From: Rhina ancylostomus
Lineage: Eukaryota
Length of the DNA: 64,000 nt
Direction of reading: 5' to 3'
NCBI GenBank assembly: GCA_030265395.1
Contig: JARFYF010000063.1
Location: 108,867,345 to 108,931,344 of the forward strand
The notes below the pieces were generated by a model that saw only the letters and a list, made by a program, of their open reading frames with translations, made no database searches and was not told the DNA's origin. Below, piece by piece: positions 85 to 63,465 of this stretch. The translations under genes and the position numbers were made by a program. Every line of letters starts with the position of its first letter. Positions within the stretch are counted from its first letter, which is position 1.

Positions 85-258
85 TTCTGCTCTGCTTTTC
101 CTTGTATATTTTTTCTACCTTCAGCCCTGAAGAAGGGTCCTGACCCAAAACGTTGACCACCGCCTTTTCTCCATGGATGCTGCCTGGCCTGCTGAGTTCC
201 TCCAGCATCATCATTTTTGTTTCATTTAGATTCCGGCATCTGCAGTCCTTGTTTCTCT
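85..258 (+). mobile_element. PLE terminal repeat with degenerate hammerhead motif (122-159)
   Basis: CAGCC-CTGAAGA-A-GGG TCCTGA CCC-AAAA-CG-TT-GACCA (GAAA changed to AAAA), followed by gatgctgcctggcctgctgagttcctccagcatc; homologous to 26647-26820. Confidence 0.75.
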
Positions 259-19779: not shown

Positions 19780-19985
19780 AGCAGTGAAAACAGAAAATAG
19801 CCAGAATAAACTGGAAAATATTGACAGAGAGAGAAACAAGAGTTAATGTTTCTGGTCAATGATTTTGCATCAGATGATGACTGATTTTTGTTTCTCTCTC
19901 CATTGATACTGCCTGACCTGCTGAACTTTCCAGTACTTTCTGTTTTTATTTCAGATTTTCAGCATCTGCAGTTTTTTTTTTGTGT
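19780..19985. mobile_element. Two PLE terminal-repeat fragments in inverted orientation
   Basis: A minus-strand half (gagagagaaacaagagttaatgtttctggtcaat...catcaga) is followed by a plus-strand half (tgtttctctctcc...gcctgacctgctga...cagcatctgcag). Confidence 0.55.
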
Positions 19986-26646: not shown

Positions 26647-26820
26647 TCCCTTCTATATATTGGGCTTCCTCTTTTCCTATCTTCAGTTCTGTAGAAGGAT
26701 CCTGACCCGAAACATTGACTGCCTATTTTTCTCCACGGATGCTGCCTGGCCTGCTGAGTTCCTCCATCATCATGGTGTTTTTCATCTAGATTCCAGCATC
26801 TGCAGTATTTTGTTTCTCTC
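26647..26820 (+). mobile_element. PLE terminal repeat with degenerate hammerhead motif (26684-26721), abutting an N gap
   Basis: CAGTT-CTGTAGA-A-GGA TCCTGA CCC-GAAA-CA-TT-GACTG, followed by the same downstream tail as the copy at 85-258. Confidence 0.75.
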
Positions 26821-28485: not shown

Positions 28486-30184
28486 CCCTATCTTTTTTTT
28501 CTCTTTTTGTATAGGATAGAATTGCAACCATACTTCCAATGCCTTGTAAAGAAGCTTGATTGATCTTTGTAACCTAAAGGTTTACATGAACTATTTGCAT
28601 AGTTACAATAACAAAATAGTTATCCAGATTTTGCAGAAGGATAAAAGAATGAAACTAGATGTTCATCATGCTGAAAGCTGCCCACAGACATTTTGTGAGT
28701 ATTTGAGCAGCAACTTGCTATATTTATCCAGCTGGACCATTTCCAGCACAATGTCCTCTGGAGAGAGTCTGCAGTGTGCACCAGAACGGCACTTCTCCCA
28801 ATCAGATTGAAGAATATATACTGTGACATATAAGCCCAGTAATTGGATCATGTAGTGCCTGTTTTTCAGCATTGATTGGACAAAATTCAGTTTTGCCCAG
28901 AGTAGCAAATATTTCCAGGTGAAATCACTCCAAATGTGAAATTGGACTGGCACTTCTGTGCACAATCCACGTTAGTGTGACTGACTTCTTCCTCGTGTCA
29001 GGTGCAAACCTAGAGATGTTGTTATTCACCAAACATTCATTTCTGCCTGTACCAGTGTAAATTGGAGCTGAGAGTGGAGTGTTTCCTCCATGTATCTACT
29101 GAGGTGCTCGTTGCATGGGTGCTTCAGTTGTGATCTCTCTGACAACCACATTACCAGAGGTGTCATGATGACCACCCTGGGTGAGTCAGGGGTCATGGGA
29201 CAGTTGCCCAAAATTTGTCCATCAGTGAAGTGCCAATTCCCAGAAAATTTTAAGAGATGCCACACCAACCTAGACCTCCTGACGAACAATGCATTCACTG
29301 GTTCTAGATTTCCAAAGCATTCAATTACAGAGAGATGTGGAATTCTGAGGAAGACCTTCAGCTGTGCTCTCATGCCTGGACTGTGGCATTAATACTCAAA
29401 GTCCTTGTCGCAAATTTATCCAGGCAGACGCACCAGATCGCCACAGCTTCTCCTAATTTGCTCTCATCAGTGAGATCATCCTGGCACTATGTTTGCATAG
29501 AACTGAGTTCATCTGCTTTACCTCAGTGAGGAACAAGTGGCATCTAAGAAAATGGGAATTGCAAGTATTCCCTTCATCCTGAGGGAGACCCTCAACCAAG
29601 ATGGATCCAGGGCAAAAAGTATTGCCGACTCCTTCACTGGTTGCTCAGACCAGCACACTGTCTGACTATAGACACTGAGTGTAGCTATAACAAAAGCAAT
29701 GTAAGTACCACAATAGTAATGGGTGGTACCAGGATTAACTTCCATAAGATTTTGTTGCATGCACCAGGCCAAGAGGGCCTTTCAGTACACACCCAAAGTG
29801 GATGTGCAGATTTCATTGTTGTGCGCTGCTCTACATTGCAACCTGAAGACAGCAGCTGATGCCCGAGGATGAGCAGCAAGGACACCGGGTACCTGAGGCC
29901 ATGAAGAAGAACCTGGACAACTAAGAGGAAGATGACAATGAAAACCAAGTGATCCTCTCCACATTATAATCATCATCATCAACATTGTATACCCAAAATC
30001 TTAAGGGAGTTCAGCTGAGGCACACGAGTCACCCACGTCCCTCTTTGGTATTGGTTATTGGTTTATGATTCGCAGATCTGCTTACACTGATTACAGCATG
30101 TGATTGAATGAATCCCTGCCACAATTATTTGAGTGACTTACGACCATATTAGTGGAATATCACCTTACTCAGAGTCCAGACTCA

Positions 30185-31050
30185 TTTCAGGCACTTATAC
30201 CTTCAACCATGCTAAATGTCACACCTGCCCCTACACCTCCTCCCTCACCACCATTCAGAGCCCTAAACAGTCCTTCCAGGTGAGGCAGCGAATCCATGTA
30301 AATCATATGAATCCATCGGGGTCATTTACTGCATCCTGTGTGGCCTCCTGTACGTTGGTAAGACCCGACGCAGATTGGGGGTTTGCATTGTCGAGTACCT
30401 TTGCTCCATCTGCTGCAACAACCAGGCTCTCCCAGTGGCCAGCCATTTTACTTCCACTTCCCATTCCCACACTGACCTGTGTCCACGGCCTCCTCTGATG
30501 CNNNNNNNNNNNNNNNNNNNNNNNNNNNNNNNNNNNNNNNNNNNNNNNNNNNNNNNNNNNNNNNNNNNNNNNNNNNNNNNNNNNNNNNNNNNNNNNNNNN
30601 NNNNNNNNNNNNNNNNNNNNNNNNNNNNNNNNNNNNNNNNNNNNNNNNNNNNNNNNNNNNNNNNNNNNNNNNNNNNNNNNNNNNNNNNNNNNNNNNNNNN
30701 NNNNNNNNNNNNNNNNNNNNNNNNNNNNNNNNNNNNNNNNNNNNNNNNNNNNNNNNNNNNNNNNNNNNNNNNNNNNNNNNNNNNNNNNNNNNNNNNNNNN
30801 NNNNNNNNNNNNNNNNNNNNNNNNNNNNNNNNNNNNNNNNNNNNNNNNNNNNNNNNNNNNNNNNNNNNNNNNNNNNNNNNNNNNNNNNNNNNNNNNNNNN
30901 NNNNNNNNNNNNNNNNNNNNNNNNNNNNNTTCTGCCCTCTTTGTTTCCAGTCCTGATGATGGGTCTCAGCCTGAAACATCGACTGTTCATTTCCCTCCAT
31001 AGATGCTGTCTGACCTGTTGAGTTCCTCCAGCATTTTGTGTTTGTTGCTT
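30185..31050 (+). mobile_element. Penelope-like element (PLE) 3' part: GIY-YIG endonuclease remnant, N gap, terminal repeat with hammerhead motif
   Basis: Frameshifted translation GTYTFNHAKCHTCPYTSSLTTIQSPKQSFQVRQR / VIYCILCGLLYVGKTRRRLG...LPVASHFTSTSHS fits the PLE Cys linker and GIY-YIG motif. After the gap come the hammerhead motif and the gatgctgtctgacctgttgagttcctccagca terminal repeat. Confidence 0.85.
30948..30985 (+). ncRNA. Minimal type-I hammerhead ribozyme motif (PLE-associated), core intact
   Basis: CAGUC-CUGAUGA-U-GGG(UCUCAG)CCU-GAAA-CA-UC^GACUG. Stem I is CAGUC/GACUG, both core boxes are present, and the predicted cleavage site is after C30980. Confidence 0.7.
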
Positions 31051-31649
31051 CCTCATAATGTACATTTTTCTCTGAGGATCTCCATTCTGCAGAAATAAAA
31101 ATGGTGTTTAGATCTTCCTGACCTATCATGTGAGGAGTGGAATTTCTTTTTGTATTGCTCTCCTGTGTGGGGACATTCACTCTTGTTGACTTTAGTCGCC
31201 CATTATTGAGGAATCAAGGACAAGTTGGGCTGCAGCTTCTGCATTTCTGTGTGTAAATGCACATGTGTGGGCTCTGTGAGGTGCTGTCACATTTATTCCA
31301 TAATGGTGAGTTCTGACATCCTCAGTGTTTTATGAACTGATTTTTTTTGCAGCTGAGAAGGATGTAAAACTTGCCTGGTGCAAGCTAAACTGGAGTAGAG
31401 AATCAAAAACTGGGGTTTGGCAGAAAATCTTGTGAGAGTAACTGGCCAAAGCTATCTGCTCGATTCAGTCTGAATTTGATGCTCGTGCACTTTCCACCAT
31501 CTGCAGTGTCTTGTGTCTCTGTTTTACTACTCCACTGTGAATTCTCTTCAAGGCATGCCAACTTTGAAGAAGTTTTCCTCCTCTCCTCTTTTCTTCGACG
31601 GGAGTTCTGTGAGACATTGTCTCACTGCTCCTCTGTGGTTTCTACTGCT

Positions 31650-31805
31650 CTTTGATGAGTTCAGATGCAGGGTTTCGATGTGAAACATTGACAGTTCCTC
31701 ACCCCCACCCCCACCCCCCCTCCCAGAGATGTTGCTCAACCCACAGAGTTCCTCCAGCAGATTGTTTGTTGCTCCAGATTCCAGCACCTGCAGTCTCTTG
31801 TGCAC
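31650..31805 (+). mobile_element. Degenerate PLE terminal repeat
   Basis: cagatgcagggtttcgatgtgaaacattgac...gagttcctccagcag...agattccagcacctgcagtc. Confidence 0.6.
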
Positions 31806-33221
31806 CTGTTGAATGCTGTTTTGTAGTGACTTCCCATGCAGTTGGGATCAGTATTGATGCAAATATGTCAAGGTGTGAGTTGTTTCTTCTTTTTTGCTTT
31901 TTTTCTATTGTTTCTTAATTTCTCCAAAAATCTCTGTTGCTTCTACTTGGTTGCAACTTAAGTATATCCCTTCCTCAGAACTCTATACTAGGACACATTC
32001 ATAAATCAATACATTTCCCTTTCCTGATGTTCCTGTTGGATGATGGCATGCGATCTCCAGATTCAGATAATCATGAATTGAACATCCTGAAGCACTCAAT
32101 CTAATATTTCAATGCTATGCAAGCTAGTTATATTATGATTCTTTATAGAGGACATTGTTTTGAGATCCCTTTTAACTCTAAGTGCATAATATGGATAAAT
32201 GACATTATTCTGAGAAAAGCACGATGGACTTTTGCAATTTCAGCCAACCTTTATGACCCATGCAAAATGAGACTAACTGGACATTGTGAGATCTTATTGT
32301 GTGCAATGTGATTGACGTGTTGGCTCAGGGAATAGATAACATACTTTAAAGTAGTTCATTAACTAAAATATTTTAGCATTTCTGAGAAATGAGATAAAAA
32401 CATGACTGAGAATGGTCTCAGTTTATGCATTGAGTTGTGTTGATAACCCACGGTAACTGGAAATAGATTGAGATTGGTTTGACTTAATTCATTTGAGGTG
32501 CAATCGCATTGCAAATGCTCATCAGAGACAAATAACAGTAGAGTTTCAGATTCATTTGACAAACCCTGCTAAGTTTCTGGGTAGATGCCGTATTGTATTC
32601 AGTAACAAAGAACCAGTTTATCCATGCCAGCCAATGCCGATCAATTTTAGGATAGAACATGCAGGGTAAGGAATTTTTTTTTAATCTTGGAAGAAAGTAA
32701 GTTGCATATAGTTTCCAGGTGCTGCAGTTCAATCTAACAACAGATATATTGTTGAATATCTGCAGCCAAGCCTAAAAGTTAGGAGGCAAACCATATGAGA
32801 TGTGCACAGAATCTTATTGCTTGGCTACCAATTATAATACAGTTCTTGCCCTGAATGTAGTATCATCTTCCAACTACCAATTACATTGCTACTCTGAGGT
32901 TGCAGTTCAGTGTTAAGGTGCCTTTGTAGGCAACAGAATTAGGCAAGTTCCTCCCTAGGGCTGGATTCAAATCAAGGTAGCAAAGGTGAAAGAGGTTGTG
33001 TAGTAATACACTGACCTGCCCTGTTCTGCATTATGTTTGTTTTGACACCAATCCCAGTTTTCTGTCAAGGATCAAAAATAGATGGCCCTTGTATTGATGG
33101 CTTCATAATGAATACTCTGTGGTATTGATGGCTTCATAATGAATTTAAGAAGTTTATGCTAAAATGGTCTAAAGTTTTAAAAGAAAATGCACAATTCTAA
33201 CATTAATTTTTATTTTATTAG

Positions 33222-63465
<30,244 letters not shown>

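Follow-up and report, generated by a model that had tools for sequence, protein, structure and literature searches.

A probably silent, CpG-decayed hammerhead motif of likely Penelope-like origin in a MARK1-like intron of Rhina ancylostomus

The stretch of DNA analyzed here, referred to as the window, comprises 64,000 nucleotides of the genome of Rhina ancylostomus (contig JARFYF010000063.1, positions 108,867,345 to 108,931,344 of the forward strand). It contains plus-strand exons of a MARK kinase gene at about 33222, 37060, 39190, 43520, 43719, 47165, 47430, and 47850. Two preceding exons are located 63.8 kb and 62.9 kb upstream from the window, and the last exon is located about 16 kb downstream from it. 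The exon encoding 79 residues matched MARK1 to MARK4 nearly equally. The UBA exon was most closely matched by MARK1 (2hak, 37.7 bits versus 34.6 for MARK2, 31.6 for MARK4, and 29.3 for MARK3). Judging from its sequence, the host gene is likely to be the MARK1 orthologue. A hammerhead motif is present in the sense orientation in an intron of this gene of about 96 kb (gaps included), with 2,242 nucleotides between C30980 and the next exon. An earlier note, based on the letters of the window, had placed the motif in sense in a MARK1 intron, about 2.2 kb upstream from the first exon found. Both points were supported, the former by the plus-strand exons on both sides of the motif and by the score of the UBA exon. 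In a later intron, two near-identical translated stretches about 1 kb apart (53354-54761) point to directly repeated sequence or to a further mobile element.

The motif is a minimal type I hammerhead (Table 1), with the letters and coordinates given in the earlier note. Stem I is perfect, as 30948-30952 forms five of five Watson-Crick pairs with 30981-30985. The catalytic boxes CUGAUGA (30953-30959) and GAAA (30973-30976) are located on either side of stem II (30961-30963 paired with 30970-30972), and GAAA is followed by a linker, CA, and by UC (30979-30980). The description of the motif as core-intact holds for the 11 letters of the boxes only, since stem II ends in a G10.1-U11.1 pair and U replaces A as the extra base, two features left unmentioned in the earlier note. 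A degenerate hammerhead pattern recovered the motif with 0 mismatches, the second site of the window (127-151) having 3 mismatches, and none of 100 shuffles of the window reached 2 pattern matches. The hammerhead motif at 30948-30985 is not a chance occurrence. When 29000-33000 was scanned with Rfam at E ≤ 10, no hammerhead family was detected, the single match being a chance one to a lncRNA. The silence of Rfam would be unsurprising for a motif devoid of helix III. None of the fold z-scores obtained for the 38-mer and its flanks was significant (-1.64, 0.80, and -0.49).

Table 1. Coordinates of the hammerhead motif, the surrounding element, and the neighboring features of the host intron.
Feature	Position	Strand	Basis or remark
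GIY-YIG-type endonuclease coding remnant, 5'-truncated, frameshifted	30188-30501	+	Translation; genome matches beginning at 30188
Assembly gap, 428 N	30502-30929		Presumed content: ORF end and pyrimidine-rich 3' region, as in gap-free copies
3' terminal repeat (pLTR) end of the element, without the optional tail	30930-31049	+
Minimal type I hammerhead motif: stem I, CUGAUGA, a single additional base, stem II of 3-4 bp, and GAAA, with no helix III in the monomer	30948-30985	+	Letters, pattern search, sister-copy alignment
Extra base between A9 and G10.1, U	30960	+	A in 18/18 GIY-selected copies and in 70/73 sampled rows
C11.1 to U by CpG decay; G10.1-C11.1 becomes a G-U wobble	30972	+	Comparison with other copies
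15.2/16.2, CA instead of CG by CpG decay; helix III palindrome lost	30977-30978	+	Comparison with other copies
Would-be scissile bond after C17	30980-30981	+	Predicted from hammerhead numbering
Nearest same-strand relative, older, broken core boxes, ACAU; unusable as partner	31654-31802	+
Next exon of the host MARK kinase gene (16-residue translation)	33222-33270	+

The whole remnant of the element extends from about 30188 to 31049. Upstream from the gap and on the same strand as the motif, a GIY-YIG-like reading frame contains GVIYC...LLYVGKT. Position 30188, at which the matches of this pre-gap piece start, is the point of 5' truncation. Thirty of 40 matches to the pre-gap piece were examined, one of which is the locus of the window itself, leaving 29 sisters. 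A hammerhead was found downstream on the same strand in 21 of the 29 sisters, at a distance of 398-474 nucleotides in 16 of them (8 gap-free). The eight sisters devoid of a downstream hammerhead comprised three at a contig edge, three with gaps of more than 400 N, and two without the motif. In the window copy, the endonuclease piece and the hammerhead are 447 nucleotides apart, across the gap. Since this distance falls within the range of the sisters, the motif and the GIY-YIG piece are assigned to one element, with the motif at its 3' end. In addition, the sequence located right after the gap matches the stretch preceding the motif in long copies. The earlier note had linked the motif to the GIY-YIG remnant on the other side of the gap and had recognized a Penelope-type minimal type I hammerhead. 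The conserved spacing in the sisters supports the link, and the identification is supported as well. The unsequenced 428-nucleotide gap could in principle harbor a second motif.

A 3' tail of 30-35 nucleotides is present in 16 of the 28 readable closest copies, the remaining 12 stopping earlier, as does the window copy. An optional tail of 30-40 bp is presented as a signature of Penelope-like elements (PLEs) in PMC11167929. Pfam did not match either of the two coding fragments of the window. The fragment of one sister, L131, matched PF01541 (E = 2e-4) with a score of 22.0 bits, just below the cut-off of 22.6, and six other fragments were unmatched. None of seven element fragments matched reverse transcriptase families, and no intact full-length element was found among 10 loci containing long open frames. 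The closest protein relatives of the element are from rays (66-70% identity for the top four) and sharks (55-58%), and 9 of 17 database homologues carry PF26215. A search for target-site duplications at the window copy produced two 5-mers only, which were disregarded. Pieces of the ORF were also found inside the unrelated ray gene models P0001, P0004, P0010, and P0013 (mucin-2, divergent protein kinase domain 1C, receptor-transporting protein 3-like, and chitinase domain-containing protein 1), probably as a result of annotation read-through or exonisation. Many loci (L082, L083, L088, L095, L096, L105, L010, L015, and L027 among them) contain an inverted second copy within a few hundred bases, which corresponds to the head-to-head arrangement reported for insertions of PLEs. 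The window copy has no such neighbor.

The 121 bases following the gap had 3,222 first-look candidates in the genome, 40 of which were scored (89-94% identity). The pre-gap piece had 4,016 candidates and its translation 17,272. Exact matching of both boxes with CpG-tolerant stems identified 6,520 copies. Over a thousand copies (1,455) also keep G10.1-C11.1 and ACGU and are hence better preserved than that of the window, and the best-preserved form of the subfamily of the window copy is represented by 200 exact copies. The reversed control was 0 for each of these three counts. A remnant profile, built from the 18 of 29 sisters with a gap-free match, was run on 50 evenly spaced stretches of 10 kb (431,853 non-N bases in all) and detected 83 remnants, i.e. 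about one per 5 kb. Sixty-three of these cover the motif; both boxes were present in 6 of the 63, and none was fully intact. Extrapolated roughly to the genome, this density would correspond to a few hundred thousand remnants, old and young. Forty-three remnants were found in the 264 kb around the window. Within the window, six older remnant ends (120-209, 19874-19944, 26678-26774, 31654-31802, and 36471-36550 on the plus strand; 52375-52477 on the minus strand) were devoid of any complete hammerhead. Some copies of the genome begin right at the motif, without upstream element sequence.

Several subfamilies have altered boxes, with 83 exact copies for CAGAUGA (U4A), 145 for CUGAUG-C-A (A9C or an inserted C), and 522 for N7=A with a GUU triplet. 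Each has its own flanking diagnostic bases (examples are L191-L202, L215-L226, and L203-L214). Either the variant cores have retained activity or the element was able to spread in the absence of an active ribozyme, the latter possibility fitting PMC11167929. In L218 (about 1470-1640), a natural multimer consists of about 4-5 short tandem units that resemble a hammerhead and recur every 33 nucleotides or so. Apparent tandem pairs with a spacing of 164-170 nucleotides were found at C7:74622928-74623131 (L101/L102) and at C112:5577742-5577939. The L101/L102 pair is split by a gap of 100 N and is probably an assembly duplication instead of a real dimer.

The substitutions present in the window copy were determined by comparison with L091, a natural intact copy. 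Differences were found at 30960, 30968, 30972, and 30978, CpG transitions accounting for three of them. The motif was covered by 73 of 126 sampled rows, 72 of which were readable at 15.2-16.2. ACAU was the commonest state at this position (26/72), followed by AUGU (19), ACGU (16), and AUAU (7). This comparison confirmed the decay of the helix III palindrome from ACGU to ACAU, as read in the earlier note. The 10.1-11.1 pair was G-C in 30 and G-U in 29 of the 73 rows. All 11 box letters were kept in 7 of 18 sister copies, none of which had both G-C and CG. The coding remnant of the window copy differed from the column majority at 11.8% of positions, for a median of 10.1% in 28 sisters. The motif did not display extra conservation in the window copy (3 differences in 38 positions versus 5 in 83 for the rest of the 3' part). 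The 3' part of this copy was 6.6% off the column majority, compared to a median of 14.9% for 18 sisters that is inflated by the presence of several subfamilies. This low divergence counts against a reading of plain decay and places the window copy among the better preserved ones. Covariation exceeded that of shuffles only for pair 2.1-1.1 (C-G 27, U-A 18; a value reached by 15 of 1000 shuffles), relatedness being uncontrolled, and compensatory changes in the remaining pairs of helices I and II were not above shuffles.

In organisms C and D, contigs cross the 5' junction from the unique flank and extend 62 bases into the element with about 8% divergence; the 3' junction flank is also present in both organisms. 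Organism B holds part of the 5' junction region. Since the 5' junction is common to other organisms, the insertion is older than the corresponding splits. The flanks of the species sharing the insertion differ by about 6-8%, and the contigs of related species break inside the repeat, short of the letters of the motif. One contig of organism B (run X2) connects 29819 directly with 30326, so that about 500 bp, including the 5' junction of the element, are deleted in this species. Nine remnants in the sense orientation were found in the host intron. Besides the window copy, these comprise eight that are either fragmentary or broken in their boxes, the nearest being located at 26678 and 31654. No intact sense partner copy was found in this intron. 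Between the second and the last exon found, 12 remnants were sense and 10 antisense, a small sample that does not reveal any strand bias.

The minimal hammerheads of PLEs (Cervera and De la Pena 2014, PMC4209133) share with the present family a helix I of 4-5 bp, an unpaired base between 9 and 10.1, the absence of a monomeric helix III, a 15.2-16.2 position that is palindromic at the level of the family, and an occurrence mostly as single dispersed copies of truncated elements, in thousands per genome. Helix II is 3-4 bp long here versus 7-8 bp in the Schistosoma families, for which monomer cleavage was undetectable and that of dimers and trimers was low (PMC4209133). All box features of this class (CUGANGA, GAAA, U16.1, and H17) are present in the window copy, as is a helix I of the expected length in type I topology. 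The single unpaired base is also present, as U30960 where the family has A. The G10.1-C11.1 pair and the ACGU palindrome, both found in 1,455 other copies, are replaced in the window copy by G-U and ACAU, respectively. These two departures led us to file the motif as a decayed descendant and not as an intact member. It is likely to derive from the minimal hammerheads of metazoan PLEs and is an ordinary, probably silent copy. No description of this hammerhead family in sharks or rays was found in the literature searched. A prior report is possible, for example by Lunse, Weinberg and Breaker, who reportedly described small variants of PLE hammerheads and whose work may cover shark and ray motifs as well as core variants. 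Sharks and rays are not named in the text portions and in the two of three supplementary files of PMC4209133 that were examined.

The Poseidon element PAc of Anolis carolinensis (PMC11167929) also combines a hammerhead in the pLTR, a GIY-YIG endonuclease, and an optional tail. PAc is a full-length element that is active in vitro, its cleavage being assisted by protein, whereas the window copy is a truncated and frameshifted fossil. According to PMC11167929, the PAc hammerhead is inactive without the protein of the element, RNA-seq reads ending at the cut site are absent, and cleavage is dispensable for insertion in vitro. The animal non-LTR retrozymes (bioRxiv 10.64898/2026.07.22.740005) also contain PLE-related hammerheads and have also been found in one chondrichthyan genome. 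These retrozymes are tandem repeats without coding sequence, and the window copy was not assigned to them since it is a single copy joined to an endonuclease remnant and does not consist of tandem non-coding units. One of nine dimers of Xenopus retrozymes was cleaved (bioRxiv 10.64898/2026.07.22.740005).

The 10.1-11.1 and 15.2-16.2 pairs, designated according to hammerhead numbering, are of general importance for hammerheads. We infer from hammerhead biochemistry and from the conservation of these pairs that G10.1-U11.1 and C15.2-A16.2 are harmful; no measurement of the effect of either in a minimal hammerhead was found in the literature searched. Both pairs are conserved in the hammerheads of PLEs, for which a dimer model has been proposed (PMC4209133). 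In such a dimer, the active site would comprise the 5' arm of stem I, CUGANGA, stem II, and GAAAC from one copy. The other copy would, by our assignment of the halves, provide the 16.2-16.1-17 triplet and the 3' arm of stem I. Two motifs of the parent element would dimerize via the ACGU palindrome, probably with the aid of the protein of this element. In a lone copy, helix III would be impossible, and the window copy has additionally lost the pair next to the cut site and the G-C closure of stem II. ACAU breaks the 15.2-16.2 pair, two bases from the predicted cut site of the window copy itself. The catalytic half of an ACAU copy would still read a GUC partner, but its substrate half would be spoiled, and an ACGU partner acting on the window copy would generate a C15.2-A16.2 mismatch beside C30980.

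Folding was modeled with nearest-neighbor energies. The model ranks the copies without giving an absolute activity, since intact copies are also predicted to be mostly in the off hairpin, and the energy of the dimeric hammerhead was -3.4 kcal/mol for two window copies, -9.0 kcal/mol for a window copy combined to an intact copy, and -17.1 kcal/mol for two intact copies. The monomer of the window is predicted to form a hairpin of -10.8 kcal/mol in which GAUG pairs with CAUC. The ACGU to ACAU change converts a U-G pair of the off hairpin into U-A, and G12 is the predicted pairing partner of the extra U30960 (p = 0.62). The RNA of the window copy would be made within the intron, misfold into the inactive hairpin, and leave uncut with the intron. 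Together, these observations indicate that the window very probably contains the hammerhead-bearing 3' end of a 5'-truncated, CpG-decayed PLE copy inserted into a MARK1-like intron, likely without cleavage of the pre-mRNA. The earlier note had proposed that this pre-mRNA carries a potential self-cleavage site. A meaningful site is not supported because a mismatch would persist beside the cut site even with an ACGU partner and because G10.1-C11.1 is lost. The failure to find an intact sense partner in the intron, the existence of over a thousand better-preserved copies, and the lack of any sign of strand bias or of extra conservation provide further evidence against it.

Weak cleavage in trans, with a catalytic half supplied by the transcript of another copy, is improbable. 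It would require that two separate short-lived RNAs meet via 5+5+4 pairs in competition with stable monomer hairpins, although AUGU copies complement ACAU at all four positions, as deduced from the sequence, and would yield a helix III of four pairs, the cut triplet being AUC. The genome contains 538 copies combining an intact catalytic half, a matching stem I arm, and AUGU. None of the nine sense remnants of the intron combines an intact catalytic half with AUGU, however, the boxes being intact in the window copy alone. PLE hammerheads act as dimers according to PMC4209133 and to the review PMC6765202, but covalent dimers themselves cleave poorly (PMC4209133). CpG decay could split the ACGU palindrome into the complementary ACAU and AUGU forms, so that dead-looking copies could form fully paired heterodimers. 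It is very improbable that transcripts of the 500-plus AUGU copies, perhaps with a Penelope protein, cut host pre-mRNAs such as that of MARK1 in trans at ACAU copies.

The conserved intronic hammerheads of amniotes are canonical motifs able to fold alone. Those of RECK, CTCL, and DTNB (PMC6155905) are type I motifs located inside a host intron, as is the window copy, and are conserved across species, whereas the window copy is a minimal motif belonging to a high-copy repeat with neutral-looking decay. Domestication of the window copy as an intronic ribozyme tuning MARK1 splicing or output, in the manner of these hammerheads or of the CPEB3 ribozyme, would have precedents (PMC6155905 and PMC10919898), but it is an even fainter prospect. 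The sense orientation 2.2 kb ahead of an exon is expected for some copies in a genome containing a remnant about every 5 kb. The boxes and stem I are intact, but the losses affect pairs required for activity and helix III is lacking. The insertion is old, being common to species that have diverged by about 6-8% in the flanks, but the coding remnant has diverged like those of the sisters (11.8% versus a median of 10.1%). Least credible of all is the proposal that separate insertions flank the gap, the motif being a short stand-alone element unconnected to the GIY-YIG piece. The gap is indeed unsequenced and some copies do begin at the motif, but the 447-nucleotide distance fits that of 16 of the 29 sisters (398-474 nucleotides, 8 gap-free) and the post-gap sequence is the stretch found before the motif in long copies.

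The single locus is of little weight, as it consists of one decayed copy of a known class of motifs. If the window copy did cut, this would show that a minimal Penelope hammerhead is able to act on the transcript of a host kinase, and the same would then hold for thousands of introns in these fishes. As a whole, the family constitutes a natural data set, with more than 1,000 intact copies and subfamilies with altered boxes. This data set allows asking whether hammerhead activity is needed for the spread of Penelope elements or is selected against in sense introns.
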